Below are positions 14,288-64,000 of a DNA stretch of 64,000 bases, piece by piece (within the stretch, counting starts at the first letter, position 1; every line of letters starts with the position of its first letter). Position numbers and translations under genes: made by a program. Source of the stretch: a virus. Location: positions 1 to 64,000 of IMG/VR virus record IMGVR_UViG_3300033442_000004; one strand, 5' to 3'. The notes beneath the pieces are model-generated. The model had not been told where the DNA came from. It worked only from the letters and a program-made list of their open reading frames with translations, and made no database searches.

Positions 14288-15853
14288 TCAAAAATCTAAC
14301 TTCGTGAAGAGGCCGGTCTTCTCGTTGAAGCCGACGTCGACCGAGCCCGTGTTGCCGGCGATGCGCTTGAGACGCACCTTCGGGATGAAGATGGTTCGTT
14401 CGTTCGGAGCCTCGTCCGGCCGCATAGCGTGGACCACGATGCCGAGGTCCGGCTTGTTCGCCCAGTGTGCGGAGTCCGAGATGTTGTAGAGCCCAGGGAC
14501 CATCTTTCCCTCCAGCTTGGTCGGGTGCGCTACAACGCAGGTCGCGCAACCGAACCGATTGCCGAACCGCTTCATTTTCTTGATCGCCTTGCCGACGTAC
14601 TCGGTCAGCGACAGCGAGTTGGGCCGATTGTGCTCCAGTTCGTTCCAAGGGTCGATCATCAGCATCTTCACGCCGTAGCGGAAGACGGCTGCTGCTGCCT
14701 TGTCGAGCACGAAGTCCAGATCGACCTCGGTGTCGTCGTTCTCGTCGTAGTCGATGAAGTAGAAGTAGCGCTCGACGAATGCCTCGGCTCTCTTCCGGTC
14801 CTCATGCGACCACGCAGCACGTTCCTTTTCGAGGAACGCGGTCATCAGTTCGTTGGCCAGGAACGGCTTCACCGACTTTTCGCCGGAGAACATCGCGATC
14901 GGCCACTTGTGTCTCATGGCCAGCCGCACCGCGACCTGGTTCATGAAGGTCGACTTGCCGACGTTGGGGATACCGGTGCAGACGATGAACTGTCCCTGGT
15001 AGAACTTCATCTTCTCGTCCAGCTCTTTCGAGATGCCGGCCTCGACCATCTCGGGGATCGCGATCTCCGGATAGTCGGACAGCTTGAAGAGACCCTTGAC
15101 GGGCCACTCCTTGGCGTTCTCGATCAGCTCGCGCACCTTCTCCGCGCCGAGGTACTTCTTGACCTCGTTCAGATCCTTGCACGCTCGCAGCTCTCCGGTC
15201 TTCTTGTCGGGCACCACCTCGTCTTCGGGATACTGGATCCAGAAGCACTTCGCCGGACCGATGCGTCTGACCAGCTCCTTCGCCAGCCGGCGGCCGGGCT
15301 CGTCGGCATCCGTCGCGATGATGTGGTACTTCACCGCCATGATCCGCTGCATGTGGCGCACCATGAACGAGAACTTGTCGTCGTCCTCGGGGTCGACATC
15401 CTTGGCGTCGTCCGGAACGTCGATCAGGTTGCCGTTCTTGTCGCGGGCAGGGGGCGCCCCATCGGGGACGGAGATGATCGTCTCGTAGCCGGACTCCTTG
15501 CCGGCCTGGACGTCGAACTCACCCTCGACCCAGATCAGCGAGTCCGTGCCGACCTCCAGTCTCGCCATCGTCTCCTCGTTGAGGAGGACGTCGGCGTTGT
15601 AGAGCGTCTTGACGGCGCCCTTCTTCTGCATGAACCGGCGCTCGCCATCCTGCGCCCACCGGTATTTGCAGTTCACTTCGATCCCGTGCTCCAGGTACGG
15701 GAAGCAGAGGACGTTTCCGCGCTCATCCGGCAGAACGACGAGGTTGTCCTGCGAATCTCGCGAGAGACGCCCGCTGTAGGTCCCCATATCCACCGCCATT
15801 TCGCTGGTGAGGCCTCTGTCCTCGATCCCTCTGGCGTGCTTCTCGCTTAGCAT
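14288..15853 (-). CDS. Toprim primase plus SF4 helicase (T7 gp4/Twinkle-like), lacking the zinc finger
   Basis: WVEGEFD, ISVPDGA, ATDADEPG, KDLNE (Toprim); TGIPNVGKST (Walker A), IDPWNE, VAHPTK, ISDSAHW. Confidence 0.9.
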   Translation of the reverse strand: MLSEKHARGIEDRGLTSEMAVDMGTYSGRLSRDSQDNLVVLPDERGNVLCFPYLEHGIEVNCKYRWAQDGERRFMQKKGAVKTLYNADVLLNEETMARLEVGTDSLIWVEGEFDVQAGKESGYETIISVPDGAPPARDKNGNLIDVPDDAKDVDPEDDDKFSFMVRHMQRIMAVKYHIIATDADEPGRRLAKELVRRIGPAKCFWIQYPEDEVVPDKKTGELRACKDLNEVKKYLGAEKVRELIENAKEWPVKGLFKLSDYPEIAIPEMVEAGISKELDEKMKFYQGQFIVCTGIPNVGKSTFMNQVAVRLAMRHKWPIAMFSGEKSVKPFLANELMTAFLEKERAAWSHEDRKRAEAFVERYFYFIDYDENDDTEVDLDFVLDKAAAAVFRYGVKMLMIDPWNELEHNRPNSLSLTEYVGKAIKKMKRFGNRFGCATCVVAHPTKLEGKMVPGLYNISDSAHWANKPDLGIVVHAMRPDEAPNERTIFIPKVRLKRIAGNTGSVDVGFNEKTGLFTKLDF

Positions 15854-16058
15854 TCTCGTAGCTGCTCCATGTGCAGTGATGACAGTTCCAAACCACGCCT
15901 GAGGCGTCGATCTTGACGCTCAGGCATTTGAGTTTCTTGTGAGCCCCCTTCCGCTTGTGGGAGCAGTTCGGGCAGATGGCGTACTGGGTGCCCATCTTCA
16001 GGGATCGGACCTTGATGCCGTTCTCCTGCAGCGCCTTCTCGACATCGACCCCGGCCAT
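15723..16058 (-). CDS. Primase zinc-binding domain encoded as a separate ORF
   Basis: CPNCSHKRK...KCLSV...WNCHHCTW matches the N-terminal zinc ribbon of Twinkle-like primases. Confidence 0.75.
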   Translation of the reverse strand: MAGVDVEKALQENGIKVRSLKMGTQYAICPNCSHKRKGAHKKLKCLSVKIDASGVVWNCHHCTWSSYENAKREARQRDRGQRPHQRNGGGYGDLQRASLARFAGQPRRSAG

Positions 16059-16894
16059 CAGATCGCCATCCCCGGGCGACCTCGCGGACGAGCTGGCGCG
16101 CTCTCGGTTTCCCAGCGCGCCTTGTTGAGCCAGACGCTGGCCGCCGCGATGAAGCGCTCGTTGTTCGGGTCGTCCTTGACCTGAGCGTTCATGCGTTCGG
16201 CGTAGTGACGGAGGCCGGCCATCAGGTCGATGAACTCGACCTCGTCATCGTTGTGGATCTTGTCGAGCTTGACCCAGGCGTCCTTCCGGCTGTCGCCGCG
16301 CTTCTTCGGGTAGAGCTTCCAGAATTGCTCCCGATAGTCCTCGGGCCAGGGCGCAGTCTTGCGCGCCTTCTTCCGGTTAGCTTTGGGTTCTCCTGATGGG
16401 TTCAGTGTGGGTTCATCTGATAGGTTAGGCGGCACGTCATGCCGGTGGTCACCGGCACCAGATTCCTCACCCAGCGGCACGTCGTTCCGGTCCCCACCGG
16501 AATCTGATGCCTCTGCCTGCGGCATTTCCTGCCGCGGCACGTCGTTCCGGTCCTTGTCGTTGTCGTTTGCTGCAGTTTTCCTGGCGCTACCACCGGAACG
16601 AGATGCCGGTGGTTCTTCCGACGAGCCAGCAGCGGGCTCAGTCATGTTCAGGTAGATCATGTCCGTGGTATCGCGGCGCTTGACGCGGCGGATCAGGTTC
16701 ATGTCTTCGAGGTCGGTCATAGCGTTGCGGACAGCGCGCACGCACGCCTCAACCTCGTCGGCGATCCGCTGCTGCGATGGCCAGCACGCACCATCGGCAT
16801 CGTTCGCTCTGTTGGCGATCGACATCAGCACTGCCTTGCGGAGCGTGCTGCCAGTCTTGATCTTTCTCGCCCAGGATTGCGCGTCGAAGCTCAT
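16058..16894 (-). CDS. Phage replication initiator (N-terminal HTH, lambda O-like organisation)
   Basis: KAVLMSIANRAN..GACWPSQQRIADE HTH; C-terminal FWKLYPKK...ASVWLNKARWE; internal iterons. Confidence 0.85.
   Translation of the reverse strand: MSFDAQSWARKIKTGSTLRKAVLMSIANRANDADGACWPSQQRIADEVEACVRAVRNAMTDLEDMNLIRRVKRRDTTDMIYLNMTEPAAGSSEEPPASRSGGSARKTAANDNDKDRNDVPRQEMPQAEASDSGGDRNDVPLGEESGAGDHRHDVPPNLSDEPTLNPSGEPKANRKKARKTAPWPEDYREQFWKLYPKKRGDSRKDAWVKLDKIHNDDEVEFIDLMAGLRHYAERMNAQVKDDPNNERFIAAASVWLNKARWETESAPARPRGRPGMAI
16405..16608. repeat. Iteron array / putative replication origin inside the initiator gene
   Basis: CGG(C/A)A-N5-T(G/T)CC(G/T) units at 16430, 16453, 16475, 16498, 16520, 16535 and 16594 (22-23 bp period, one abutting pair). 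Confidence 0.8.
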
Positions 16895-48328: not shown

Positions 48329-48550
48329 TCAGAACTGGTAGACGTTGTTCTGGGTGACGATCAGCCGGCGCTCGAAGTCGATCGAGCGGAGGGCGGAGGT
48401 GATGGTCACTTCCCCCTTGGCGCCGCCGCGCTCGTCGTGGTCCTCGCCCATCTCGACGCGGGCCTTGATGACGCCGGACAGGGGTATCCGCTCGATCGGC
48501 GCGCCGATGCAGTCAGTGAAACCGAGAAGCTTGCAGGTGAACATGCGCAT
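48329..48550 (-). CDS. Hypothetical phage protein
   Basis: ITSALRSID..RRLIVTQNNVY. Confidence 0.55.
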   Translation of the reverse strand: MRMFTCKLLGFTDCIGAPIERIPLSGVIKARVEMGEDHDERGGAKGEVTITSALRSIDFERRLIVTQNNVYQF

Positions 48551-49780: not shown

Positions 49781-49815
49781 GGCGTGGTCTCCGGTGGGTG
49801 GCAGTGGAAGCGCTT

Positions 49816-50169
49816 TCAACGCTGAGCGAAGCGGGCCTTGCGACGGGCATAGCCGGGCGTCGGAGGCTGGAAGCGGGGGCCAGTGAAGGGCGTGTAACGC
49901 AGGTGGGGCTCTTTGGCCTCGAAGTGGGTATCGGCCCATGTACGGCGGGCGAGCTCGATCCTGTGCTGGCCTGCGAGCGTCTCGGGGCTGACTTCCGCTT
50001 CCGGGATCATGAGGCGGGTCTCAGCCAGTGTGGTCCGGCTCTCTTCGCCGCTCTTGGGCGTGATGAGCATTTCCCGACCACCCGGAAAATTTGAAGCCAG
50101 CCAGTCCGCGTCAGACTGGGGGCGGGGGGTCGTTTTCGCATTGGCGAATGCACGATTTTTCCGGGGCAT
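49816..50169 (-). CDS. Hypothetical protein
   Basis: GGAG RBS; 117 aa. Confidence 0.5.
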   Translation of the reverse strand: MPRKNRAFANAKTTPRPQSDADWLASNFPGGREMLITPKSGEESRTTLAETRLMIPEAEVSPETLAGQHRIELARRTWADTHFEAKEPHLRYTPFTGPRFQPPTPGYARRKARFAQR

Positions 50170-50190
50170 GCTCACACTCCGTGGAGGGCA

Positions 50191-50226
50191 CAAAAAAAGG
50201 CCCCCGGCGGTGAGGCCGGGAACCTT
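50191..50226 (-). terminator. Rho-independent terminator
   Basis: Minus strand AAGGTTCCCGGC-CTCACC-GCCGGGGGCC-TTTTTTT. Confidence 0.75.
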
Positions 50227-50254
50227 GCGATTTGCGGGGGCGCGGTGGGGCGGG

Positions 50255-51271
50255 TTACGCCGCCTTGCGCTTCCGGGACTTCTTTGCGGGGGCTTCCGCC
50301 GTCTCTTCCGCCTTGCCCTCTTCCGCCGGAGCGGGCGGGGGCAAAAGCAGGATGACGTTTTCCGCCGTGGGGGCTTCCGCCGAAACCGACGCGCCGACCT
50401 TGGCGTTAATGTGCGCCTGCAGCGTCATCAGTGCGTCGATGGAAAGCGTATCCACTGCAGCCATGATCGCCGCCAGTTTCTCGCTTTCGGTCAACGGCGC
50501 GGGGGCTTCCGCTTCCGCCGACTCGGGGGCTTTCGCTTCCGCCTTGGCTTCCGCGCCTTCGCCGCCCTTGTCCGCCTTGTCCGCCTTGGCCATGTCGTGC
50601 CATTCGGCCAAGCGGGATTGCATGATACCCCACTGCCCGGAAAGCAATTCGCCAACCTTGGCGTTCCACATGGTTTCGGCCGACTCGACCGACGCGGCGC
50701 GGGCACATTCCAGAATGACCGGCGCGTGGTTCAGGCGCATGAAAGAGGCAAGGCGCGTTCCGTAGGTCCGGAGCGTTTGCAGCGAGTCGATAAGCTTGAC
50801 GTTCACCGGCTTGCCGTTGCTACCGGTTGCGCCGGTATGCTTCAGCTTGACGTATTCCGACGCCAGCTTGTTGCGCTCGCTTTCGGCCGCCTTGAGTGCA
50901 TCGCCCGAAAGCCGGTCAAAGCTGGCGGTAGCGGACATGATGGCCGCCGCATGGGACTCGGTCCCGCGCCAAATCATCTTGCCAGCCTTGGCGACCGGAA
51001 CCAAAATGTCGCGGGTGAAAATCCACGCGTCTTTCTGCGGATCATAGTTGTTATCCGTCAGAACAGCGCGGATTTGTTCGCCGCAAAGGTTCAGCGCCAG
51101 CATGGTAACGGCGTTGTAGGTCGACGACTCGGCCGCGCCAAGCGACTTAATCGCAAGGTCCGCCGCACGAGTCTGGATCGTATCGGCATACTTTTCCGTT
51201 GCGGACTGCAACACGTTGGTTTCGGCCATCTCTTGCGCGGTAGCGGCGCGGGTATCGGTAGCGGTAGCCAT
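50255..51271 (-). CDS. Ala-rich hypothetical protein, first gene of the leftward arm
   Basis: 338-aa ORF with its own AT-rich upstream region and terminator; ends SRKRKAA. Confidence 0.7.
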   Translation of the reverse strand: MATATDTRAATAQEMAETNVLQSATEKYADTIQTRAADLAIKSLGAAESSTYNAVTMLALNLCGEQIRAVLTDNNYDPQKDAWIFTRDILVPVAKAGKMIWRGTESHAAAIMSATASFDRLSGDALKAAESERNKLASEYVKLKHTGATGSNGKPVNVKLIDSLQTLRTYGTRLASFMRLNHAPVILECARAASVESAETMWNAKVGELLSGQWGIMQSRLAEWHDMAKADKADKGGEGAEAKAEAKAPESAEAEAPAPLTESEKLAAIMAAVDTLSIDALMTLQAHINAKVGASVSAEAPTAENVILLLPPPAPAEEGKAEETAEAPAKKSRKRKAA

Positions 51272-52399
51272 TTTCGTTTCGCCTTTCTCGTTTCGCCCCC
51301 GTCTTTTCCAGACCATCCGGAAAAATCCGAGGTTTTGGCATGGCTCTCCCGTTCTCTGCGAAGGTCATTCGCGAGGTGGAAAAACGCGCGGGAAAGCCCG
51401 CTTGCCTCTCCCGCTATATGCGGGCACAAAATCACCATACGAAACGAGACTTGAGTTTAGAAGCAAAGAAAAAATGCTGCAAAATCAATAGCTTGCAAGG
51501 CGAAAAATCGGGGTTCTGCATTCCCTCGAAACAAAATCGAGCAAAGAAAATGTAAGCAAATCAATTCGTTAGCATGTATGCAAACGATGATTCCAATTCA
51601 GAAAAATGATAGATCTAGACAATGGAAAGATTGAGATCGAAACGAGAACAAACATTCAACTATGGTATGATTGACAAGGGTTTCCCAGCACTCGAATCGG
51701 TACCCCTACCAAAGTCTAATTTTTTATTGGACATGGGGACTGGGTTGGCCAATACCCATCAACTTCGCACCGCTAAAAGGCCATTTCCCCCAATCGACTG
51801 GGCGATGATATGAAACTTGGGCCTGAGCTTTGAAATCCAGGGCCGTGGGAGGCTCTGCGGCCCGCCTATGTAGGTTCCGAGGGGTGAAACGGGCGGCCCT
51901 TCCTGGGCCTTCCCTGGGTTTTGGGGGGGGCGTTTGCATTACCACAAATCCGAGGCCGCGAAAAGCGGTATGCCCTTCCAAAAGACCCCCCTGTTTTGGG
52001 GCCCCACGGCCACCGCCGCACTGGCAAAAGGGGATTTGTCCCGTGTCCTGGGACGTGGGACAGCCGACCTGAATTGCCGCATGGGTAGCGAGGGCTTCGC
52101 CCTGGAATAACAGACCAGTCACCGCCGCGGCCGGCGCGCGGCAGCGAGACCTCGGGCTGGGGGCCATGGGGTGAGATCTCGCCGTCGTGGGGTGGTTGGG
52201 GTTCTCAGCCTTGGAGGAGCTGAGGTCTTCATCGAACGCTCATTCAGGCCGCTCGTCAATGAGCATGGGGTCATTCTTGAGCCGCGGCCTACGGGTGGGA
52301 ATGACCACGACGATCGCCACGCTGATCGACCACGACAAAGCGGCGGCCTATTACACGTGAAGATGCTCTTCACGATCCGTTGGCTTGAGCGGCCCCCCT

Positions 52400-52645
52400 T
52401 CGTGCGGTGGGCTCTCCTCACCTGGGCCACGAAGCCTGGGCGCGGCGGACCGCGGCCGGCGAGCACTTCGCGCTACCGAAATCTCGGCTGGCTGCCGAAC
52501 AGATGGACGACATTGCCAACGCGCATCGGCGCGGCTGGCCGACTTCATGGCTGCGGATCTGTCCGCGCTCGACCTTCTGGTGGTCGAAATCGACGGGGTG
52601 CATCCCGGCGACGATCTTGTGGTGGTGGCCGCGACCGGGTTAGGG
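52400..52645 (+). pseudogene. IS256-family transposase fragment
   Basis: LADFMAADLSALDLLVVEIDGVH..DDLVVVAA.G resembles the first catalytic-Asp region of IS256. Confidence 0.6.
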
Positions 52646-52841
52646 CCGCGTCTAACCGACCACTTCCAAAGCCATAATCACTGTACTGCTAGAACTAGTA
52701 GGTTCGCTGTTCTCAGTTCCCAGCTAAGCAAGTAGAGCCGTTTTGGAAGAAACCTGTCCTGAACATAAGGCCAGAAGGACCTGAAAAGTGCAATTGACGG
52801 TGCTAAGCAAGTCAGGAACTCGCAGAAAATGGAGAACAAGC

Positions 52842-53450
52842 ATGGCAAACTTACGCCAGGACGACAAGTCTACACCAGGAGCAGATGATGCAGCTCGCCG
52901 TGCCGGCGAGCGGGCTGCCGAGCAGACCAGCCGTACCGGACAAGCTGCAGCTGATCAGACCGCGCATGTTGGACAAGGTGCCGCTCAAGCCGGAGAAGAA
53001 ACGGCCCGATCAACTTCCGACTTTCTTAAGCAGAACCTCGAGACGGTGCAGAACGCATGGCGGATCGGCCTGGAAGCGACGACCTTAGCCGTGGGACGCT
53101 CTACCGAGCAACTTGGACGCACGCTCGGCGTCTCAGGAGAAGGGGTGCAACAGGCAAAAAAGGCAACGGAACGGTCGGCGCGCAATGCGCAAAAGATCCT
53201 TTCCACCAGTAATGCTGCTGCCAAAGTGATGAATGGAATTTCTGAAGAGTACAGCCAGATGGTTCGGCATCAAGTCGGGAAGAACATGGACTACATCAGC
53301 GAGCTGTGGACCTCGCGGACCCCTCAGGAATTTGTAGCCGCACAAAGTGATATTGTGCGGGAGTCTGTGGAAATTGCTCTGGAGGGTAGTCGTCGGATCG
53401 CCGACCTGTCGCTCAAAGTGGCCGAGGAAACCGGAAAGCAGATCAAGTGA
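52842..53450 (+). CDS. Phasin-like protein
   Basis: C-terminal SRTPQEFVAAQSDIVRESVE..LEGSRRIAD pattern; GGAG RBS. Confidence 0.65.
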   Translation: MANLRQDDKSTPGADDAARRAGERAAEQTSRTGQAAADQTAHVGQGAAQAGEETARSTSDFLKQNLETVQNAWRIGLEATTLAVGRSTEQLGRTLGVSGEGVQQAKKATERSARNAQKILSTSNAAAKVMNGISEEYSQMVRHQVGKNMDYISELWTSRTPQEFVAAQSDIVRESVEIALEGSRRIADLSLKVAEETGKQIK

Positions 53451-53641
53451 AGTATGGAAGGAGTCCGATTGCCCCATGGGAGCGTTCTTCGTTGTAGTCG
53501 CCGCGCTTCCCCAGACAGCGCTCGTCGGATGGCTGCGCCGGGCTGTGTTGCTGGGCTGCGGCCTGATTCCGGTCCTTCGTGCCCGAGGCCCAGGCCGTCG
53601 GCGTGAGCCGCTCCAGCCTGAGCTATCCGCCCACGGCGACA

Positions 53642-56600
53642 TCAACCCCTGAGTCGGTTCTGCAGCGCCTGCCGATTGGCAACGACGTTGCTAAGGTTCA
53701 GCTGGTCTGGCTCCCATCCTTGCGCCAATTGCCTAACCAGCTCCCGCGTGCCGTCCACGACAAAGACGCCGCAATCATAAGTGTTCTGCTGCTGGGCCAT
53801 GTCGGCTAGCTCCAGGGGGAGGTTCAGCCTTCTTGCGAGATGTGCTGCATCTCTGTTGTTGAGTCCGCCGTAGGAATCGTAGTGATAGGCGACCGGCCGC
53901 CACCGGTCGCTGCGATCTACGAACAGCAGCGACCAATGGTTGCCGCGGCTATTAGGATCTTCAGGATTGCCATTAATCACGGGCAGGAACAGGAAGTCGG
54001 CTGTATCATTACCATTATCGTCATAGACGATGCGCTGGAACTCGGTTAGCACGACGCCATCGTCGTTAGAGCGCAGATAATTTAGGGCGATGAGGGGATT
54101 CACGAACCGCGTCCGGGCGGCGAGATCCGGATCGTTCCTCTGCAAATCCTGCTCCTGGAGCCCGTAATCCCTGTCGATATGCTGGTCGCCCAGCCATTCT
54201 GTGTCATCGAGCACCAGCCCGTGGCCGTGAGACGAGACTGTCGGATCTAAAGCCCCGATCTGAGCATTAGCGGAGGTGCTCGGAAACGGGCGTACAGAAT
54301 TAGCATCGTCACGTGATTCGGACGGCGTGGGCGCAGTCAGATCGACCAATGGAAAACCGCGGTAGGCGTCTGAGCGAGCCCTGGCAAAAGGCGCCGCCGC
54401 AAAGTGAGCATCGTCGCGCAACTCGGACGGCGTGGGCGCATCCAGATGCACCAATGACTCAAGACCGCCGTAGGTGTCTGAGCGAGCCCTGGCAGCGGGC
54501 GCCGGCGCAAAGTGAGCATCGTCGCGTAATTCGGACGGCGTGGGCGCATCCAGATGCACCAATGACTCAAGACCGCCGTAGGTGTCTGAGCGAGCCCTGG
54601 CAGCGGGCGCCGGCGCAAAGTGAGCATCGTCGCGCAATTCGGACGGCGTGGGCGCATCCAGATGCACCAATGACTCAAGACCGCCGTAGGTGCCTGAGCG
54701 AGCCCTGGCAGCCGGCGCCGGCGCTGCTTCCAGCGTCGGCCACATACTCCAATCAAAGTCGAGCGGCATCTGCGGCGACCAGGTTGAGGCGGACCACGCA
54801 GGTTGCTGCCGTCCAGCTTGGACTATGTCCTGCGCCTGCCCAGGGGGAACCTCGGGCCACGATGGGCCGTCTTTCCCCATCAAACGCAGATCCCGATCGT
54901 AACCTTCCGGGAGGACCAATGGCCGACTGACAGCTCCCTGCGGCGCGCTGTGCTGCGCGGCGGCGCCCGCGACGTACGTCGCGGCCGCATGCGGCGCCGT
55001 TGCATCTTCGTGCCCGCTCGCCTGCATCATCGGCTGCGCATGCCATGGCGATGCACCCTGTTGATGGGTGGGGGCCGGGGTCGCGGCGATCTCGCTCAGC
55101 AGCCGCTCAATAGCAAGGCCTTGCGGATTGTCTAGGGTCCTCGGCCTCTTCGCTGGCCTTAACTCAGCTGCATCCTGTTCATCGTTGATGAGGATCTCCT
55201 CGCTTGGCGGGAGGTTGCTCCTGGCAAGTGCAGCCATCGGCTCTTCCGAGAACTGCTGGCCGTCCCGGCGCCAGTTCAGGGGACGAATGGAATCTCCGGG
55301 ATCCGATGCCTGGTCGTGCCGCGCGACTGGCTCGAGAGATGACGACGGGCCGGGTTCGTCCATCAGCCCCAAAACCAAATCCTGCTCGTGGCGTTCCGCA
55401 GGAAGCAGTTTCTCTGGCCAACTGCCAACTTCCTGCGAGCTGTGCTGCGCTGCGGCGTCGCCGGCCCGCCTCGGCTCCATCAGTGCCGCGCCTTCGGGAT
55501 CAGGACCGGGGGAAATATAGCGCTCGCGCTCCATCGCTTTAGCGCCCGCCTGTGATTTTCGGAGTTGACCTAATGCGGCATCGATCGTCCGGATGCCACC
55601 GAAGTCCTTTTTATAGGCCTCGACATCTTCATCCAACGCCCCGCCGGAAAGCCGAGTAGCAATGCCCTTCTTGTTATTTTCACGCAGGTGGTGACCGAAA
55701 CTGCGAAGAGCAGTCGCATACACACCGCCGGTACTTGTCGCTGCTTCGTTTTGGTACTCTATGATGAGAGCCGCGTCCTGGAGGTAAGGATTTAGCTCAG
55801 TGGTGGCTGTGACCGTCACTCCGCCCGTCGACTGAAAGGTCCGGAGAAGACCTATTGACCTAATAAGGAGGCGACTGCCCTTACCCTTTTCGATGAACTC
55901 ACGCGCATCATCGGTCAGCGACTCTTTTTCGAGCCGATCAACAATGCTCGTTTTGTTATTTGCCAAGAGCCAGCGGCCAAAGGCGCGAAGCGGGCCTACA
56001 AGGTCTTTGGCGGTGCGTTCGGCGGCGTTGCCACTGCGGAGGGCCTCCTCAAGCCCCGAAATAAGGGGAGCATCCTCGGAATAAAGAGGCTTCCTCCGCC
56101 CTCTCAAAATCCCAGTTGACTGAGCCGGCTGCGGCGCCGACGACGACGGGCCGGGTTCGTCCATCCGGCCCAAATCCTGATCGTGGCCTTCCGCAGGAAG
56201 AAATTCCTCTGGCCAACTGCCAGCTTGCTGCGACGCACTGTGCTGCGCAGCGGCGTCGCCGACCTGCATCGACTCCATCAGGGCCGCGTCTTTGGGATCA
56301 ATATGCCGCTCGAGCTCCATCGCGTTAGCGCCGGCCTGCGATTTTCGGAGTTGAGCCAGAGCGGCACCGATCCTCGAATCAGCACCGGCGCCCTTCTTAT
56401 AGCTATTGATATCTTCATCCAACGCCCCGCCGGAAAGCCGAGTAGCAATGCCCTTCTTGTTATTTTCACGCAGGTAGTGACCGAAACTGCGAAGAGCAGT
56501 TGCATACATCCGGCCGGTACTTGTCGCTGTTTCTTTTTTGTACTCGTTGATGAGATCCGCGTCCTGAGGGTGAGGATTTAGCTCAGTGCGGGCTGTGACC

Positions 56601-57520
56601 GTCACTCCGCCCGTCGACTGGAAGGTCCGGAGATGGTTCAATTCCTCTGACCAACTGCCAGCTTGCTGCGACGCACTGTGCTGCGCAGCGGCGTCGCCGA
56701 CCTGCATCGACTCCATCAGGGCCGCGTCTTTGGGATCAATATGGCGCTCGGGCTCCATCGCCTTAGCGCCGGCCTGCGATTTTCGGAGTTGAGCCAGAGC
56801 GGCACCGATCCTCGAATCAGCACCGGCGCCCTTCTTATAGCTATTGACATCTTCATCCAACGCCCCGCCGGAAAGCCGAGTAGCAATGCCCTTCTTGTTG
56901 TTTTCACGCAGGTAGTGACCGAAACTGCGAAGAGCAGTTGCATACATCCTGCCGGTACTTGTCGCTGTTTCTTTTTTGTACTCGTTGATGAGATCCGCGT
57001 CCTGAGGGTGAGGATTTAGCTCAGTGCGGGCTGTGACCGTCACTCCGCCCGTCGACTGGAAGGTCCGGAGATGGTTCAATGCCGCAAGGATATTCGAGGG
57101 ACGCCTCTTTTCGAACTCGCGTGCATCATGGGTCAGCGACGGGTCGTTGAGCCGAGCAACAATGCTCGTTTTGTTATTTGCGAGGAGCCAGCCGCCAAAG
57201 CTGCGAAGTGAAGTTAGATAGTCCCCAGCGTTGCGGTGGGTGGGGTTGCCGATAAGGGCCTTCTCAAGCCCCGAAATAAGGCGAGCGTCCTCGGAATAAA
57301 GGAGATGCTTGCCCTGCCGTCCTATCAAAACCCAAGTTGACTGAGCCGACTGCAGCGCCGAGGCGGCCGGCATTGCTCCACCACCTCCATCTGAGTTGGC
57401 GATCTCGCTCAATTGCCGCTCAAAGGTCGCCGCGGCTGCGGACGGAGCCGCGGGTGAGCTCTCTTGCGGGCCCGTGCTGTCCGATTGTTCATGCACCGAC
57501 TTGGTCGAGGGGAAATCCAT
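53642..57520 (-). CDS. Type III secreted effector with C-terminal ULP1/C48 SUMO protease (Bel2-5/NopD family)
   Basis: WLGD.HI, NHWSLL, HYDS, QQQNTYDCGVFV (H/D/Q/C); NLS-like RPAKRPR; EAR-like LVLGL and LNLPL; internal repeats; upstream tts box. Confidence 0.9.
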   Translation of the reverse strand: MDFPSTKSVHEQSDSTGPQESSPAAPSAAAATFERQLSEIANSDGGGGAMPAASALQSAQSTWVLIGRQGKHLLYSEDARLISGLEKALIGNPTHRNAGDYLTSLRSFGGWLLANNKTSIVARLNDPSLTHDAREFEKRRPSNILAALNHLRTFQSTGGVTVTARTELNPHPQDADLINEYKKETATSTGRMYATALRSFGHYLRENNKKGIATRLSGGALDEDVNSYKKGAGADSRIGAALAQLRKSQAGAKAMEPERHIDPKDAALMESMQVGDAAAQHSASQQAGSWSEELNHLRTFQSTGGVTVTARTELNPHPQDADLINEYKKETATSTGRMYATALRSFGHYLRENNKKGIATRLSGGALDEDINSYKKGAGADSRIGAALAQLRKSQAGANAMELERHIDPKDAALMESMQVGDAAAQHSASQQAGSWPEEFLPAEGHDQDLGRMDEPGPSSSAPQPAQSTGILRGRRKPLYSEDAPLISGLEEALRSGNAAERTAKDLVGPLRAFGRWLLANNKTSIVDRLEKESLTDDAREFIEKGKGSRLLIRSIGLLRTFQSTGGVTVTATTELNPYLQDAALIIEYQNEAATSTGGVYATALRSFGHHLRENNKKGIATRLSGGALDEDVEAYKKDFGGIRTIDAALGQLRKSQAGAKAMERERYISPGPDPEGAALMEPRRAGDAAAQHSSQEVGSWPEKLLPAERHEQDLVLGLMDEPGPSSSLEPVARHDQASDPGDSIRPLNWRRDGQQFSEEPMAALARSNLPPSEEILINDEQDAAELRPAKRPRTLDNPQGLAIERLLSEIAATPAPTHQQGASPWHAQPMMQASGHEDATAPHAAATYVAGAAAQHSAPQGAVSRPLVLPEGYDRDLRLMGKDGPSWPEVPPGQAQDIVQAGRQQPAWSASTWSPQMPLDFDWSMWPTLEAAPAPAARARSGTYGGLESLVHLDAPTPSELRDDAHFAPAPAARARSDTYGGLESLVHLDAPTPSELRDDAHFAPAPAARARSDTYGGLESLVHLDAPTPSELRDDAHFAAAPFARARSDAYRGFPLVDLTAPTPSESRDDANSVRPFPSTSANAQIGALDPTVSSHGHGLVLDDTEWLGDQHIDRDYGLQEQDLQRNDPDLAARTRFVNPLIALNYLRSNDDGVVLTEFQRIVYDDNGNDTADFLFLPVINGNPEDPNSRGNHWSLLFVDRSDRWRPVAYHYDSYGGLNNRDAAHLARRLNLPLELADMAQQQNTYDCGVFVVDGTRELVRQLAQGWEPDQLNLSNVVANRQALQNRLRG
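54300..54722. repeat. 108-bp (36-aa) tandem repeats in the effector
   Basis: TGAGCGAGCCCTGGCA at 54371, 54479, 54587 and 54695; unit ARARS.TYGGLESLVHLDAPTPSELRDDAHFAPAPA. Confidence 0.95.
56202..57077. repeat. Near-perfect 438-bp (146-aa) tandem duplication in the effector
   Basis: TCAGTGCGGGCTGTGACC at 56583 and 57021; a more diverged copy lies at about 55420-55850. Confidence 0.95.
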
Positions 57521-57668
57521 CCGTTCTCACCTTCAAAATATGAACATGGGCTTCGATCTGACATGCTGGGAATCAGCAACAAACCACCCTTTACGGCCCT
57601 CGACAGGCGCGCACCGTGAGCATCGGCAGCCGATGTTTTTGCAAGGCGACCAGCCCTGTATGTTTTGT

Positions 57669-57698
57669 TAAATGGGGAAGCTGTCGAGAACCTGATGA
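57669..57698 (-). promoter_or_regulatory. tts box (TtsI-dependent promoter)
   Basis: Minus strand TCATCAGGTTCTCGACAGCTTCCCCATTTA versus consensus tcGTCAGcttntcGaaAGct-N8-ta, about 150 bp upstream of the effector ATG. Confidence 0.8.
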
Positions 57699-57954
57699 CG
57701 ACAATTGCCGCGCCAAGACAGCATGGTGCATGTGCCTGCGCGCTTCGCCGTCAACAGCCGAGAGACCGAAGATACCGAAGATTCAGAGACAAAATACTGC
57801 TTCTCATCGGTGAGGCGTACGGCCAGCTTTCGCGGCTCCAGCCAACGTCTTGACAGGATGCGCTGAACGCGCGAGGCAAAAATCGAAACGCAACCACTTT
57901 TGGTGCCTTACAATTCAGTATTGATCTTAAGACGCCTATTGCTGAATCGGCTTG

Positions 57955-58008
57955 CAAATTTTGGACGCCGATCCCCCGGCTTAGGGGGGCAGAATTGCAG
58001 AATGACAC
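57955..58008. mobile_element. Possible IS terminal remnant (IS21-like) at the island edge
   Basis: AAATTTTGGACGCCGATCCCCCGGCTTAGGGGGGCAGAATTGCA resembles alphaproteobacterial IS end repeats (from memory). Confidence 0.4.
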
Positions 58009-58191
58009 CCACGTCACCCCAATAGACGAACCATTCACCTGGTCGGTGCTCGTCGTTGTCCCGGCGTCGGGTAAGCTGGGTCAATTGGGACGAACCTGTG
58101 GTTTCTGACACTCGGTGCGGGGTGGAGCGCTTCGCGCTCAGTCCATACCGTAACAGGGCGGCTGGCCTTACCGGGATTTGTAAGGGACCAC

Positions 58192-58329
58192 CGGCATCTG
58201 GTGCCGCGGCATCTCGTGCCGGTACCACCGGCATCTGGTGCCGGTACCACCGGAATCTCCTGCCGGTACCACCGGCACCAGGTGCCTACTAACCTATCAA
58301 GAAACAACACTGAACCAACATTGAACCCA
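58192..58329. repeat. Second iteron array homologous to the initiator-gene origin
   Basis: CGG(C/A)A-N5-TGCC(G/T) at 58192, 58207, 58229, 58251 and 58273, followed by CTAACCTATCA...CACTGAACC. Confidence 0.85.
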
Positions 58330-58392
58330 AAGAGGGTTTGCCGACCTTCGCGCTCGGCGGGTTCCAGCGTTTGCATTCCATTTGCAGAGGGC

Positions 58393-58447
58393 TTGACGGA
58401 AACTGCATATGGGGGTATCTACTGCGCTACGTTAGCATTCGTGCAAA
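58393..58447 (+). promoter_or_regulatory. Sigma70-type promoter of the rightward arm with downstream operator
   Basis: TTGACG-17 bp-TATCTA, then TTAGCATTCGTGCAAA at 58432. Confidence 0.6.
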
Positions 58448-58710
58448 CGGCCATCATCAAGCCCCCAACCCAGCCAGCCGGTTCCCGCCGGACTGGCCGG
58501 CGCGGGCAGAGGAACCCAATGACCCTCACGGACCTGCAATTCGTGGCGGCACTCGGCGTGCTCACCATGAAATTGCTCGTCCTGACCTTCGGGGCGCTCG
58601 CCATCACCTCGATGGCGTTTGTGATCACCGCCGTCTGCAAACGCTGACACCAAGTTACCCAGAGCCCGGTCTCGCCCACGGCAGACCGGGGCACCCTTTC
58701 CGGAGCGACC

Positions 58711-59004
58711 ATGCCTCGCAGACGCCGACGCCAGGAAGAAGATCTCGTTCATGCCGCCGTCGAGGCGTTGGAGGATGAGATCCGATGCTGGCAGCAGCGG
58801 GAGAGGCCGTATTCCGGCGACATGGTCACGCTGACGCGCTGGCCGCTCAGCCGCATTGCTGGACCAATCGGTCCTGCCGAGGTCGACGCTCAGGCGATGC
58901 AGACCATCGAGCACATCGATCTTCAGAAAAACGAGGTTCCGTTCTTCCTCCGCTATCGCGGCATGGAGGCGGCGATCAAGAAGATCCGCGAGCTGGAAGC
59001 ATGA
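58711..59004 (+). CDS. Hypothetical phage protein
   Basis: GGAG RBS; 97 aa. Confidence 0.6.
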   Translation: MPRRRRRQEEDLVHAAVEALEDEIRCWQQRERPYSGDMVTLTRWPLSRIAGPIGPAEVDAQAMQTIEHIDLQKNEVPFFLRYRGMEAAIKKIRELEA

Positions 59005-59380
59005 AGCAGCTCGGTGACATCCTGCTGGGCCTCGGGCTCGGCCTCACGATCGCGGCCCTGATCGCCAACAACTGGCGGCGGTCGAAGCCTCGCGTCCATG
59101 GCTGGAGCGAAGCCGACGCCGAGCTGCTGACGATGCCGGCGCACGAGCGCCTGGCCCGGCAGCTCGCCGTCCGGGCAGGCGCCCCCGAGTTCATGTGGCG
59201 GCGGTACACGCCGCTCGCCGTTTCGATCATCCTGAGGAAGCCGTCATGAGCCGTCGTCGCCAGCTGCAGATCATCCGCGATCAGATCCACGCCGAGATGC
59301 GGGACGGCCTGACGCAGACCATGCTGATCGCCTTCCTGGTGATCGCCGCGATCGACGTCATCGCCCGGAACATCCACTGA
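59001..59380 (+). CDS. Two small membrane-anchored hypothetical genes (59001-59249, 59246-59380)
   Basis: ATGA overlaps; hydrophobic segments. Confidence 0.5.
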
Positions 59381-59715
59381 TGGCGCGGACTGGCAATTAC
59401 CAGATCCCGTTCGACGAGGCCGGTAACCAGCTCCATTACCCGGAGGTCTGGACCTTCGTGAACGGCAAGCGCGGCGACGTCGTCTGGCGCGACAACGTGC
59501 CGTTCCAGGCCAAGCTGACCTACACCGGCTTCAACCGCGGCCGGTCGGCGGCCTACCTCGACTTCACCGACGAGAACGGCAAGTCGGTCACCTTCTTCAT
59601 GAAGGACTTCGACAAGCTCGTCCCGCACCTGAGCGGGGGCGCCGTCACCGGCACATTCATCTTCGTCAAGCGCGGCCAGAACTACGGCTGCCAGCTGATC
59701 GAGCCCGTCGCGTGA
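59380..59715 (+). CDS. Hypothetical phage protein
   Basis: RGRSAA and FVKRGQNYG motifs. Confidence 0.7.
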   Translation: MARTGNYQIPFDEAGNQLHYPEVWTFVNGKRGDVVWRDNVPFQAKLTYTGFNRGRSAAYLDFTDENGKSVTFFMKDFDKLVPHLSGGAVTGTFIFVKRGQNYGCQLIEPVA

Positions 59716-59907
59716 GCGTCGGCCAGGGCAAGGCGCTTCGCGCTCACCAGCACAAGATGAACCGCAAGCAGGACATCTCCGATCGCCGCGGTCGCGAGTT
59801 GCAGGAGCGCGTCGAGCAGCGCCGCATGGCGAGGCAGCTCCGCAAACCAGTTTCCAAGAGCCCGTGATCTGCTCCGAGCAGCACGGGTCCACCCTTCAGA
59901 GAGAACC

Positions 59908-60090
59908 ATGCCCGCCAAGAAGAAGACCGCCGAGAAGTCCGCAGCCGTCATCACGGTCAAGGACGCGCCCGAGATGACCAAGCGCGGCCGGCGCCAGGTC
60001 GCCGAGTGGATGCGCAAGCAGGCCGACTTCCTGGAGTTCGAGGGCAAGGCGTTCTCGAAGCGCTTCACCGCGCGCTACCTCTATCGCTGA
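59908..60090 (+). CDS. Small basic phage protein
   Basis: 60 aa, ends FTARYLYR. Confidence 0.55.
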   Translation: MPAKKKTAEKSAAVITVKDAPEMTKRGRRQVAEWMRKQADFLEFEGKAFSKRFTARYLYR

Positions 60091-60243
60091 TGGCCAGCGA
60101 TACCTGCGATGCCTGCGGCAAAACGGAAGAAGGCGTCGCCTGGTTCGCAGCAGCCTTTCGAAAGGTACGGCTTAAAAAAGATAAGCCTGATCCCGGAAAC
60201 CTCTGCGGAGGATGCGCCGGCTCCATCACCGGAAAAGAAATCG

Positions 60244-60498
60244 GTGCCGAAGTCTCCGGCCGAGCCAAGGCCTGATCCGATCTCGACCAGCCCGTTCGCG
60301 TTGCAAGCCTACGAGCTGATCAAGGTTCTGGATCCGCTCGTCGGTGTGGCCGAGGCGACCTTCTTCATGAACCGCAGCAACGAAATGCTCGGCGGCATCA
60401 CCCCGGTGACCGCGATCAAGCAAGGCCGGCTCGACGACGTCAAGCGCGCCGTGCGCGCGGTCGCAGCAGAGAAGGGCGTCTTCCAGACGCCGTTGTGA
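60244..60498 (+). CDS. Stand-alone Xre/MbcA/ParS antitoxin C-terminal-like domain
   Basis: ATFFMNRSNEMLGGITPVTAIKQGRLDDV. Confidence 0.55.
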   Translation: MPKSPAEPRPDPISTSPFALQAYELIKVLDPLVGVAEATFFMNRSNEMLGGITPVTAIKQGRLDDVKRAVRAVAAEKGVFQTPL

Positions 60499-60615
60499 TG
60501 AAGACCAAAACCCGGAAGCCGGCGAAGCGGTATCGACCGCTCGCTTGCGGCTGCTGCGACAGCATCGACTGTCGCGAAACCATCAACCATCAAATCGAGT
60601 GGCGCGAGGCACAAG

Positions 60616-60882
60616 ATGAGCTTGCAGACGATCACCCCGTGGTGCGCCGTAGTTGCGGCGAGCGAGACGATCGCTATGCAGTACATGGACGCCTTCAAGC
60701 TCTCGTCCGAGATCTGGGATGCGCGCCAGCACGACACGGCGCTCGGCGCCCAGTACGAGCACATCGTGCTGATCCGGCCGCACTGGCGCATGGCGCCCGC
60801 CGAGGTCGCCCACTTCGAAAGGAACGTCCTGCCGATGTGGCTGACCCGCCTGTCGCCGAACGGCAAACTGAAAGTCATCTGA
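60616..60882 (+). CDS. Hypothetical phage protein
   Basis: 88-aa ORF. Confidence 0.55.
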   Translation: MSLQTITPWCAVVAASETIAMQYMDAFKLSSEIWDARQHDTALGAQYEHIVLIRPHWRMAPAEVAHFERNVLPMWLTRLSPNGKLKVI

Positions 60883-60889
60883 GGACATC

Positions 60890-61422
60890 ATGGACGCCGC
60901 CGAAGTCACCGACCACAAGCCAGTTTCGATCTGGAACAAACTCAACCCGCTATGGTGGCTCGTCGGCGATGACGGCTGGAACGTGCCGGACGTCAACAAC
61001 GGCGCGCCGTACCTGCCGGAGGTGACCAACATCTGGCTGCGGCGCTTCTACTGGTTCATCTGCCGCAACCCGCTGATGAACTTCGTCGGCTACGTGCTCG
61101 GCGTCGAGGACAAGAACTACTGGGTCTACGGCTCGGACCAGGTGCTGCGCACCACCGGCCGCGACTGCACCCCGCAGGCCTTCGGCTTCCGCTGGGCGGT
61201 GCTCGACCCGGGCGTCTCGTTCGGCGCCATCGCGGTCACGCTGATCGCCGCCGCGCTCGCATGGTTCATCCATCCGGCGTTCGCCGTGGTCCTCCCAATC
61301 TCGCTGTTCAAGGCGGCCGGTCTCTTGTCAACTACTGGAACGGCTCTCTCGAGTTTTACCTGGGCTGGCGGCCGGCAAGCGGCGGCTTCGGCACCAAGAT
61401 CATTTTCACGGAAAGCACATGA
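60890..61422 (+). pseudogene. Membrane protein gene with probable frameshift near 61325
   Basis: Plausible C-terminus VNYWNGSLEFYLGWRPASGGFGTK...TGA lies in another frame and overlaps the next ATG. Confidence 0.55.
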
Positions 61423-61668
61423 TCATCGAAGCCATCATCCTCGGCGTCGCTCTCTACGCCGGCCTCTCCTCGATCGGCGACGCCATCGACAATGTCGCGG
61501 TCGGCATCGAGCAGGCCTCGCTCAACCAGATGGCGTTCTTCCAGGACGACGAAGACGACGAGGAGGGCAAGTGATGCCGTTCCCGCTGTCCATCTTCCTG
61601 TTCAGCTACGTGATCTGGCAGGCCTCGATCGAGCGCGCCTTCACGTTCAACCCGGTCGAGCTGCGCCC

Positions 61669-61875
61669 GTGACGATCACCCTCAATTCCTGGGCCATCCC
61701 GGTCTTCTTGACCGCGCTGCTCTGGCTCGCCGTCCAGCTCTGGCCGGTCTCCGAGAACAACGGCGGCTTCGGCTTCAGCCAGGCCTTCGACTATCTGCTC
61801 CACGCCGTTGTCGGCATCATCGCCACGCTGGTGATCTGGCTCGTTTATTTCGCCACGCGCTTCGCCATCGGCTGA
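61669..61875 (+). CDS. Small two-TM membrane protein
   Basis: Two hydrophobic helices. Confidence 0.5.
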   Translation: MTITLNSWAIPVFLTALLWLAVQLWPVSENNGGFGFSQAFDYLLHAVVGIIATLVIWLVYFATRFAIG

Positions 61876-61901
61876 GCCGGCGCGCACCAAAAGCCACGCC
61901 A

Positions 61902-62408
61902 ATGAAACTGCTGCAACTCGCCCTCGCGGGCGTGCTGATGCTGTGCGCCTTGTCGCCAGCGTCGGCCAAGGACGTGCCGGTCCAGTTCGAGTCGGGCCAC
62001 AACGTCACGTTCATCACGGATGATCCCGGCGGGGTCATCGTCGAGTTCGTCAAGAAATACTCCGACATGCGCGACGCCAGGACCAAGGTCATCCTGTCCG
62101 GTGAGTGCGTCTCGGCCTGCACCCTGATGCTCGGCCTGCTGCGGCCGGAGCTGGTGTGCGCAACGCCGGATGCCGTCCTCGGCTTCCACTCGGCGTCCGT
62201 CATCACGAGGGAAGAGGGCAAGCCCGACATCGTCGAGCACGGCTCCGAAATGTCGCTGCTGGTGTTCAACACCTATCCCGCGAAGGTGCGGGCGTTCCTT
62301 GCCGCTCGCGGCTGGAGCGGCGCGAACGCGCACCCGGACATCATCTGGGTGAAGGGAAGGCAGCTCCGGAAGATGATCCGGCCTTGCACCGCGGCGGACC
62401 TGTCATGA
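61902..62408 (+). CDS. Exported protein with ClpP/crotonase-like motif
   Basis: Signal peptide; DDPGG, GECVSACT, LGFH. Confidence 0.7.
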   Translation: MKLLQLALAGVLMLCALSPASAKDVPVQFESGHNVTFITDDPGGVIVEFVKKYSDMRDARTKVILSGECVSACTLMLGLLRPELVCATPDAVLGFHSASVITREEGKPDIVEHGSEMSLLVFNTYPAKVRAFLAARGWSGANAHPDIIWVKGRQLRKMIRPCTAADLS

Positions 62409-62758
62409 CGCGGCGCCGGCTACCCGATCGGCGCAAACTGCCGTCCAAGATCATGATCGGCATCTTCGTTTACACGCTGGTGCATTGGGACGCGGCCGAG
62501 GCTGAGGAGCAGGAATGCCTGGGCCTCTGCAATCGACTGAACTTCATCATCTACGTGCGTGACGACCTTCCGGACTCGAGCTTCGCCGAAGTGCTGGAGC
62601 ACGAGATCAATCACGCCTGCTGGCACGCTGCTTCGCTGAAGAGCCGAGCCGCAGAAGAGACGGTCGTGAACCGGCTGACGCCGATCATGATCATGGCTCG
62701 CCGGGACAATCCAGAAATCTACGCCTGGATCGACCGGGCGATCGCCCAGAAAGAATAG
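62405..62758 (+). CDS. HExxH metallopeptidase-like phage protein
   Basis: VLEHEINHAC...EETVV. Confidence 0.6.
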   Translation: MTRRRLPDRRKLPSKIMIGIFVYTLVHWDAAEAEEQECLGLCNRLNFIIYVRDDLPDSSFAEVLEHEINHACWHAASLKSRAAEETVVNRLTPIMIMARRDNPEIYAWIDRAIAQKE

Positions 62759-62760
62759 CC

Positions 62761-63024
62761 ATGCTCAACGCCATGGTCGCGTCATCGAAGACGCATGCCG
62801 CAGCCATGATCCGTTGGCTCGGCCTCAAGCCTGAGGAGTGGGAGCCGATCGCCTATGGCGATCCGATCCACAAGATGTTCGCCAACGTGCGCCTCGTGCG
62901 CCCGAGCGAAGGCGTCGAACAGGCTCACACCGACTGGGTGCTGGAGAAGCTCGTTCCATACATCTGCATGACCTGCACGACGGTGCCGCTGAACTGGCGC
63001 ATCCCGCAGGAACACGTCAGCTAA
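62761..63024 (+). CDS. Hypothetical phage protein
   Basis: 87-aa ORF. Confidence 0.55.
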   Translation: MLNAMVASSKTHAAAMIRWLGLKPEEWEPIAYGDPIHKMFANVRLVRPSEGVEQAHTDWVLEKLVPYICMTCTTVPLNWRIPQEHVS

Positions 63025-63041
63025 AAACAAGAAAGAAAAAA

Positions 63042-64000
63042 ATGACGCGACGGATATCGCGCCCGCTCTGGGCCGCGATGCGGCTCCATGAGCACAATCA
63101 AAAGCGACGTGCCGAGCTTCTCGGTGGCGTCAGTCCTCTTCCCTTCATGGGGCCTGTTGCCCTCTCAAAGGCAGCGGCCGGCGCCGCCGACGCCTGGTGC
63201 TGGTTCCACGAGCCTCGTGCTCTGTCCGTGAACGGAAAGACGTTCTTCGGCACGAACGGTTCGGACGACAACTCGGTCCTCACCGGTCGCACCACGCTTT
63301 ACGAGGTCGACGAAGCGAGCGGCTCCGTCATCAGCAAGGTCATGCAGACCAGTACGATCGCGGCCTGGTGGGCCGACGACCACGACTATCCGACGATCGT
63401 TGTGCGTCCCGACGGACGACTGATCGTGTTCTATTTCCCGCACCGCGTGGCCGCGCCGATTTATTTCCGCATCTCGGTTGGCGTCGGCACGATGGCGCAG
63501 GGCTGGTCGCAGGAATACAATCTCGGCAATACGTCCGCGCAAGCGACGTATCCGTCGCCGGTGATCCTGTCTGGCGAGAGCAACAAGCTCTATCTGTTCT
63601 ACCGCAACGGCGCGAGTTCTGGTCCGTTGTCGCTGGTGACCTCATCCGACATTGCTACAGTCGCGCCTCCGACCGTGGATGGAGGTCCGATTGGAGCTGC
63701 GCCGACGTGGGCCGCTGAAAGGCGCCTGGCGCAGAGTACCGGCACCCAGGGCATCTACCACAAGGTCACCTCGAACAACGTCGATCGCATCGATCTCCTG
63801 ATGACCGACGCGGTCGGCCCGCAAGCAGGCACGAAGACCGACGTCCGCCATGCCTACTATCAGGGTGGCCAGTGGCGCTCTTCGAGCGGAACGGCGCTCG
63901 GCGACGGTTCGACCATGATCGGCTTCACGAACTTCACGCCTGTCGCAACGTCAGGCGCTCCGGACAATCTCGGCGATATGTGGTGCTCCCACATTCAGCG
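63042..64000 (+). CDS. BNR-4/beta-propeller repeat protein (runs off the window end)
   Basis: Hand-translated: AWCWFHEPRA, DDHDYPTIVVRPDGRLIVFY, TYPSP..LS..NKLYLFYR. Confidence 0.7.
   Translation, partial: MTRRISRPLWAAMRLHEHNQKRRAELLGGVSPLPFMGPVALSKAAAGAADAWCWFHEPRALSVNGKTFFGTNGSDDNSVLTGRTTLYEVDEASGSVISKVMQTSTIAAWWADDHDYPTIVVRPDGRLIVFYFPHRVAAPIYFRISVGVGTMAQGWSQEYNLGNTSAQATYPSPVILSGESNKLYLFYRNGASSGPLSLVTSSDIATVAPPTVDGGPIGAAPTWAAERRLAQSTGTQGIYHKVTSNNVDRIDLLMTDAVGPQAGTKTDVRHAYYQGGQWRSSSGTALGDGSTMIGFTNFTPVATSGAPDNLGDMWCSHIQ

Follow-up and report, generated by a model that had tools for sequence, protein, structure and literature searches.

The stretch of DNA analysed here (the window, 64,000 nucleotides) covers the initial 64 kb of an IMG/VR provirus record of 120,772 bases and belongs to a Bradyrhizobium prophage, labelled G0 in this work. 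Its early replication and recombination arm is read leftwards from 16894 (minus strand) with the replication initiator gene (16058..16894, minus strand) in first place, and encodes, according to Pfam and PHROG matches, SSB, a DnaQ-like exonuclease, a YqaJ/RecE-type exonuclease, a NinB/Orf mediator and ribonucleotide reductase. Directly 3' of the initiator gene a primase-helicase is encoded (14288..15853, minus strand), composed of Toprim and DnaB-like parts (Pfam AAA_25, DnaB_C, Toprim). Between the initiator gene and the gene of a repressor-like HTH protein (17834-18589, plus strand) a RuvC-like Holliday-junction resolvase gene is located (16978-17619, plus strand); it is divergent from the adjoining initiator gene, which is an unusual location for a resolvase and makes it interesting for a fork-restart model. 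A second leftward arm (18.6 to 48.3 kb, minus strand) carries genes of a ligase, a helicase, an rIIA-like protein, a peptidase and an AIPR protein. The rIIA-like gene (26805-29030, minus strand; PHROG 612, E 2e-86) is found here in a temperate alphaproteobacterial prophage, and the AIPR gene, of the abortive-infection type (37635-39389, minus strand), is placed in a low-GC patch of the prophage (GC 54-57%) and is probably defence cargo. An island with a phasin-like gene and an effector-like gene of 1292 aa occupies 48.4-58.0 kb, and from about 58.4 kb the genes are read rightward, so that the second iteron array, described below, is situated exactly at the divergence of the leftward and rightward arms.

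The initiator (278 aa) consists of an N-terminal winged-helix domain, a variable linker and a conserved C-terminal domain. Its N-terminal DNA-binding domain matches Pfam HTH_36 (residues 19-68, E 1.2e-9), which is the only family found in a Pfam scan of the protein at E <= 0.01, and its PHROG match is annotated as 'replication initiation protein / O-like' (best E 4.4e-37). The search of the whole record gave a single initiator match, i.e. G0 encodes one initiator only. The linker-coding part of the gene contains an array of five CGG(C/A)A-N5-T(G/T)CCG palindromes (16430..16608, minus strand), with cores at 16594, at 16535 and 16520 (an abutting pair), at 16475 and at 16430, which along the coding strand are spaced by 59, 15, 45 and 45 nt. 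The 22-23 bp spacing given for this gene in the preliminary description holds only in the sense of 2 x 22.5, the full sites being 45 nt apart. Next comes an AT-richer flank with GAACC repeats (16381..16428, minus strand; GC 49% vs 61% for the record), which encodes ..NLSDEPTLNPSGEPK.. and whose repeats give rise, in the protein, to the EP..EP..EP stretch of the initiator linker.

Lambdoid initiators bind iterons within their own gene. In lambda the ori is located inside the linker region of gene O, where internally symmetric iterons are followed by an AT-rich segment, and it is a single origin. The G0 gene resembles lambda ori in having, together with an N-terminal DNA-binding domain, iterons in the linker-coding part, each of them symmetric, and an AT-rich segment next in the direction of transcription; in-gene sites and an AT-rich flank are also present in 7/7 related genes and in four other lineages. 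The G0-type initiator genes in IMG/VR loci carry 2-6 in-gene sites in seven of seven cases and no sites outside the gene there, the records behind L010-L016 being fragments (9-29% complete) that are informative on in-gene arrays only. Unlike lambda, the phage studied here has a complete second, non-coding copy of this putative origin.

The second iteron array is intergenic (58192..58287, plus strand) and is built of five palindromes separated by TACCA, with cores at 58192, 58207 (abutting), 58229, 58251 and, in a degenerate form, 58273, i.e. at a spacing of 15, 22, 22 and 22 nt. Behind it comes an AT-rich flank containing GAACC repeats (58288..58335, plus strand; GC 38% vs 61% for the record), which is likely to be an unwinding element. 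The abutting pair, the three 22-nt-spaced units and the flank, as the preliminary description had them, can all be read in the sequence of 58192-58335 on the plus strand. The in-gene module (16381-16608, minus strand) is inverted relative to the second one, and the arrays are 41.6 kb apart, in agreement with the separation of about 42 kb claimed before. In a blastn comparison 58252-58332 aligned with 16466-16381 (79% over 86 nt, E 6e-11), and beyond that segment nothing comparable to the second array was found within the window. The pattern with one mismatch allowed gave 9 matches in the window vs 1.48 expected, a count reached by 0/100 shuffles, and the strict core gave 15 matches in 120,772 bases vs a mean of 1.3 and a maximum of 5 in 200 first-order Markov simulations. 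Of the 15 strict sites, the gene holds five and the second array four, the other six being scattered singles. These single cores are located at 25110 and 51184 of the window and at 68231, 85109, 95123 and 114322 of the record; as six of them exceed the 1.3 expected for the whole record, the Markov background model is imperfect, and they may be single docking sites or else chance occurrences that a poor background model underestimates.

The earlier statement that no initiator reading frame surrounds the second array was upheld by the single initiator match in the record. The open reading frame passing through the array (58201-58647) was rejected as a coding candidate, having no Pfam hit and running by chance into the gene at 58519. 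Also a structured RNA at this place was rejected, the Rfam matches being far below threshold (13-23 bits vs gathering scores of 98-100). The GC skew turns near 52-58 kb, but since the turn coincides with the change of the coding strand, GC skew was not used as origin evidence.

Relatives were fetched by means of the initiator protein, which provided two whole provirus records, G006 (95 kb) and G007 (114.5 kb), with initiators 42% and 31% identical to that of G0, respectively, others being more distant; alignment A1 comprises the initiator and six relatives. In addition, we used 80-kb stretches around the three full-length initiator matches among 401 Bradyrhizobium genomes (G117, G376 and G010). 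The phage of G117 is the same as G006, and the gene order of the window is common to G006, G007, G117, G376 and G010. The sample covers five lineages (G0, G006/G117, G007, G376, G010) from one bacterial genus, with phages of about 95-120 kb. A strong or full-length initiator match was obtained in 3/401 genomes of the genus and in 1/401 genomes of the family (G010 itself, the search centre), while a single-protein scan of genome contigs found no relative. The G117 phage is integrated in a 9.09-Mb contig, and the G376 phage lies inside an 8.34-Mb contig.

The initiators of the other lineages differ in their N-terminal domains, as visible in alignment A1, and the part of the gene encoding the linker carries other palindromic words: TGTC-N9-GACA types in G006 and G007, GTGTAA..GATGACAC in G376 and GTGTGAAC..ATCACAC in G010. 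Outside the gene the word of each of these genomes forms a single cluster, which is inverted, 33-38 kb distant and placed at the arm-divergence gap. In G006 it has five sites (49296-49390, 36.4 kb from the in-gene array), in G007 three (57224-57268, 38.2 kb), in G376 three (8273983-8274055, 33.4 kb) and in G010 four (57985-58075, 34.5 kb). As for the question whether related prophages keep both arrays, raised in the preliminary description, a matched pair is present in 5/5 lineages. In G006 the G0 word has no occurrence and in G007 a single one; the G006 word is met at four places in G0, which form no cluster. When shared 7-mers were tabulated as a matrix, the intergenic array best matched the in-gene array of its own genome in 5/5 cases, the words of G006 and G007 being similar and each other's close second.

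In all five lineages both copies have the AT-rich flank behind their last iteron, with order and orientation preserved. It contains three to five (A/T)GAACC-like repeats, which the lineages share irrespective of their iteron words. Its GC content is 36-44% in the intergenic copies and 47-49% in the gene copies, with 60-61% for the genomes. The intergenic GAACC flank resembles the in-gene flank of the same phage (77-78% identity; E 9e-11 for G376 and 7e-7 for G010), and the site spacing across the lineages is about 22 or 44-45 nt.

These comparisons bear on the possibility that the intergenic array is a neutral scar, i.e. what is left of the middle of a paralogous initiator gene after its deletion, or else a chance cluster. 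In G0 an open frame reading ..HRHQVPTNLS..EPTLNPK.. resembles the initiator linker ..HRHDVPPNLSDEPTLNPS.., for which reason the module is probably derived from a segment copied out of an initiator gene, and the position of the array at the edge of the island would also suit a scar. What a neutral remnant leaves unexplained is a matched array at the same place in 5/5 lineages, maintained through at least four changes of the repeat word. Moreover, the intergenic arrays exceed those inside the genes in regularity, and three of the five have stops in all six frames; repeats kept there without a reading frame indicate a constraint acting on the DNA. The search of the record with the initiator protein detected neither an N- nor a C-terminal initiator remnant around the second array, and a chance cluster is excluded by the shuffles and Markov simulations given above. 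The scar of a paralogous initiator gene, which the preliminary description had named as the finding that would overturn its reading, is rejected by the comparison of relatives: they keep both arrays, and the word changes together with the initiator. A neutral or accidental nature of the array is, in our opinion, extremely improbable.

A second sampling, based on the conserved leftward neighbour gene (profile A2), provided 10 IMG/VR loci, and in 7/10 of them (L111, L112, L113, L116, L118, L119, L120) an array is present beside this gene. L111, L113 and L116 are the phages of G010, G007 and G006, L112 has an array of the G0 type and an intact neighbour gene, L118 has a further word with five sites, L119 two widely spaced sites, and L120 three sites of the G007 type. 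L114 (98% complete) and L115 (91% complete) have the neighbour gene, no initiator of the family and no array beside the gene, and thus serve as negative controls. In L117, an 11.6-kb fragment (10% complete), the neighbour gene and the promoter are found with no array between them, which makes it a possible counter-example; the shortness of some arrays (G007, L119, L120) likewise weighs against the origin reading. Within the G0 type the flanks of the gene copies are 90-97% alike, the intergenic and gene copies 77-84%, and the intergenic copies of G0 and L112 84%. The last two share letters missing from the gene copies, which argues that the intergenic copy is an old orthologous locus and not a fresh duplication.

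The first gene of the leftward arm is represented in G0 by a remnant of 27 codons (58004..58084, minus strand), tblastn of three A2 proteins having aligned residues 1-27 only. Relatives have the gene in full length, and its product of 146-147 aa shows the motif ..WGWSCGF.. and, at the C-terminus, a CxC..H..H pattern; in the G0 record the remainder of the gene is absent, lost at the edge of the effector-like island. Despite its neighbour gene being cut to 27 codons, the second array of G0 is intact and the most regular of all. On the 5' side of the array, between it and the leftward gene, there is a GC-rich hairpin GAGCG-loop-CGCTC (58125..58139), followed by CCGTAACAGGGC. The TTCG-loop hairpin and the subsequent CCGTAAC(A/G)GGGC are found at 58125-58175 in G0, 49243-49280 in G006 and 57150-57190 in G007, and also in L112; a related hairpin is present in G376, and it is absent in G010 and L118. 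The upstream hairpin is no T-tailed terminator. A search of viral contigs with the hairpin-context pattern found only G006 and G007, and no match was obtained in G010. A weak GC-rich hairpin after the flank (58340..58358) was noticed by eye and is outside the four strongest local folds of G0; stronger hairpins occupy this position in G006, G007, G376 and G010. Most intergenic copies are bracketed by GC-rich hairpins.

The rightward promoter placed at 58393 in the preliminary description is supported by a TTGAC-type -35 box (58393-58398, plus strand), kept in G006, G007, G010, L112, L117, L118 and L120, but no promoter was called at 58393 by the consensus promoter scan. At the head of the rightward arm there is a TTAGCATTCGTGCAAAC palindrome (58432-58450, plus strand), present also at 16938-16953 and 17726-17744. 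Irrespective of the iteron word, every lineage has the (T)TTGCATTCGTGCAAA palindrome in two positions, 5' of the initiator gene and where the rightward arm begins (it was seen in G006, G007, G010, G376, L112, L117, L118 and L120); it is probably a phage-wide promoter or regulator signal. Our initial idea of one immunity repressor linking the initiator and rightward promoters via the shared GCATTCGTGCAAA palindrome is weakened. The first rightward gene (58519..58647, plus strand) encodes a 42-aa hydrophobic (membrane) protein, and homologous starts are present in G006, G007 and L112.

The window was compared over 47000-64000 with contigs from four public runs on other strains; two of these were RNA libraries, the other two DNA runs of other organisms. 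The second array is kept in 4/4 runs. Runs X17 and X18 have 22 extra letters within 57959-58336, equal to the length of one repeat unit, which suggests that the number of array units varies between strains. In 4/4 runs the 55 bases of 58337-58391 are replaced by 654 other letters. In L030 (G009) an HNH-type endonuclease gene of about 178 aa (1-584) is located directly 5' of the rightward promoter, and the record ends there; the 654-letter replacement matches this gene and looks like a mobile endonuclease gene inserted beside the origin-type module. L030 had been considered a close relative without the array and was rejected as such: since the four runs have the array and then the 654 other letters, the array of L030 is, judging by lengths only, most likely just past the end of the record. 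The array, the insert and the promoter are all contained in one RNA-library contig, at a depth of 13.7 vs about 3 further right, contigs being no proof of transcription.

Between the array and the start of the first leftward gene there are 7-110 nt, and the rightward promoter lies about 60 nt downstream of the array. An array-bound initiator might in this arrangement act as a transcription switch, controlling the leftward arm or the rightward promoter and coupling expression to the initiator level. In G010 and L118 the leftward start codon is within about 10 nt of the first iteron, and the leader, and probably the promoter, overlap the module; the depth of the RNA-library contig mentioned above, subject to the same limit, points in the same direction. 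In G0, however, the leftward gene is destroyed and the array is intact and nearly perfect, while the distance to the rightward promoter is variable, with the 654-letter insert in other strains and an extra small gene in G010. A regulatory operator would, moreover, leave the conserved AT-rich flank unexplained. We regard such a switch as quite improbable.

The preliminary description rated the paired layout as highly novel, which was not sustained, as the same layout is described for phage SPP1 in the available parts of three sources. In SPP1, oriL is located inside gene 38 and the non-coding oriR in one of the longest intergenic regions, both having repeats and an AT-rich unwinding element, and gp38 (G38P) has a similar affinity for the two (PMC6316719, PMC3485210, PMC5737612). 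According to the same parts of these papers, oriL supports one-directional theta replication in vitro (PMC6316719, PMC3485210, PMC5737612), while for oriR a fork stall leading to a switch to concatemer synthesis was proposed, only oriL having been shown to drive replication (PMC6316719, PMC3485210, PMC5737612). As far as these texts allow the comparison, the Bradyrhizobium phages share with SPP1 an origin-type copy inside the initiator gene and a distant non-coding copy, both with repeats and an AT-rich element and with one initiator, and their pair is a further case of a layout already known. The second locus is non-coding, carries the same repeats and its own AT-rich predicted unwinding element, and is kept by selection, a matched second array being present in 5/5 lineages and in 0/2 near-complete phages that have no initiator of the family. 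Unlike the Bacillus phage SPP1, the phages studied here are temperate, of about 95-120 kb, and their host is a Gram-negative alphaproteobacterium; in place of gp38, the gp39 loader and gp40 they have an HTH_36/O-like initiator and a fused primase-helicase; their repeats are palindromic, in contrast to the direct 'AB boxes' of SPP1; and the second copy is at the divergence of two gene arms, not in the late region. We consider gp38 an analogue in layout and not a shown homologue. Supplementary files aside, the literature search found no paper on origins of Bradyrhizobium phages; PMC10127595, in the part available, concerns prophages of 40-50 kb and does not mention phage origins.

Accepting that the initiator docks at the intergenic array, the site might still be silent in initiation. 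It could be a fork barrier that makes replication change from the circle-to-circle mode to concatemer synthesis (rolling-circle, recombination-dependent), or it could limit initiation through handcuffing or titration with the in-gene array. A barrier is what was proposed for SPP1 oriR in the sources cited above, and the early arm of G0 encodes restart proteins (RecE/YqaJ-type exonuclease, NinB/Orf mediator, SSB), with the RuvC-like resolvase gene adjoining that of the initiator. The inverted orientation, kept in 5/5 lineages, is in accord with a barrier, and co-variation supports docking alone as well as firing. For either a barrier or a titration site the AT-rich GAACC flank would be superfluous, yet it is kept in five lineages without coding constraint. 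As to titration, the element is integrated (G117, 9.09-Mb contig), so plasmid-type copy control seems unnecessary in the lysogen. Taken with its points on both sides, a docking site of this silent kind seems to us somewhat unlikely.

Remote arrays read by one initiator are well known from smaller elements. In phage P4 (ori/crr), plasmid P1 (incC/incA) and R6K (gamma/alpha/beta) one initiator serves at least two arrays set apart from each other, the remote one having an effect on initiation. The arrays are within a few kilobases; in P1 and R6K their role is plasmid copy control, and in P4 the primase-helicase doubles as the initiator. The prophages studied here are predicted to share with these elements one initiator and separated arrays of the same repeat, and differ from them in that the arrays are 33-42 kb apart, the prophage is integrated and the remote array has its own AT-rich flank. 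An incA-like locus is an iteron array without origin features in an autonomously replicating plasmid or plasmid prophage; the intergenic module departs from this type of control locus, as the AT-rich flank is present and the relatives G117 and G376 lie inside contigs of 9.09 and 8.34 Mb.

The anatomy of the intergenic module, its conservation and its co-variation with the initiator are read directly from the sequences, and on this basis the best reading of 58192-58335 is that of a selected, non-coding second docking module of the origin type, predicted to be used by the initiator. The preliminary description had offered a second origin, a handcuffing or titration site and a transcription switch as alternatives. 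The retained order of the flank and the inverted orientation fit an origin-type module better than a bare titration site. According to this reading, the initiator encoded by 16058-16894 would dock on both arrays, as suggested by the co-variation, its variable N-domain reading the lineage-specific palindromes. The sites, phased by about 22 or 44-45 nt, i.e. two or four helical turns, would be exposed on one DNA face; at either array the AT-rich GAACC flank would then open, and the conserved neighbouring primase-helicase would enter there. From the composition of the module we infer that binding, unwinding and firing may all take place at the second array. That it is a true second origin, the counterpart of SPP1 oriR as the latter is presented in the parts of the sources available, has in our judgement about an even chance, the prediction being drawn from sequence comparison. 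A more far-reaching version of the origin reading, which we find unlikely, is that the inverted copies form a pair of one-directional origins with flanks pointing apart, providing bidirectional replication of the genome. The intergenic copy would in such a case be a natural control, implying that the GAACC repeats act at the DNA level, as a signal for entry of the helicase, while the EP..EP..EP linker of the HTH_36 initiators simply results from translating them.

The value of the finding lies in an unusually clear co-variation series. Should the less likely version hold, with the two copies as a working pair of one-directional origins, each recombination event which swaps the DNA-binding domain of the initiator would require the remote origin to be matched anew, and at least four such events would be recorded in these phages. 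Besides, the second array marks the true divergence point of the prophage gene arms, and the symbiosis-effector island was inserted beside the origin-type module and not into it. Five related temperate phages with at least four initiator specificities and two matched modules each, one of them under coding constraint, constitute a natural experiment. Such a series makes it possible to test which bases are read by the initiator, which features of the flank are needed for unwinding, and what purpose a second origin may serve in a Gram-negative system.
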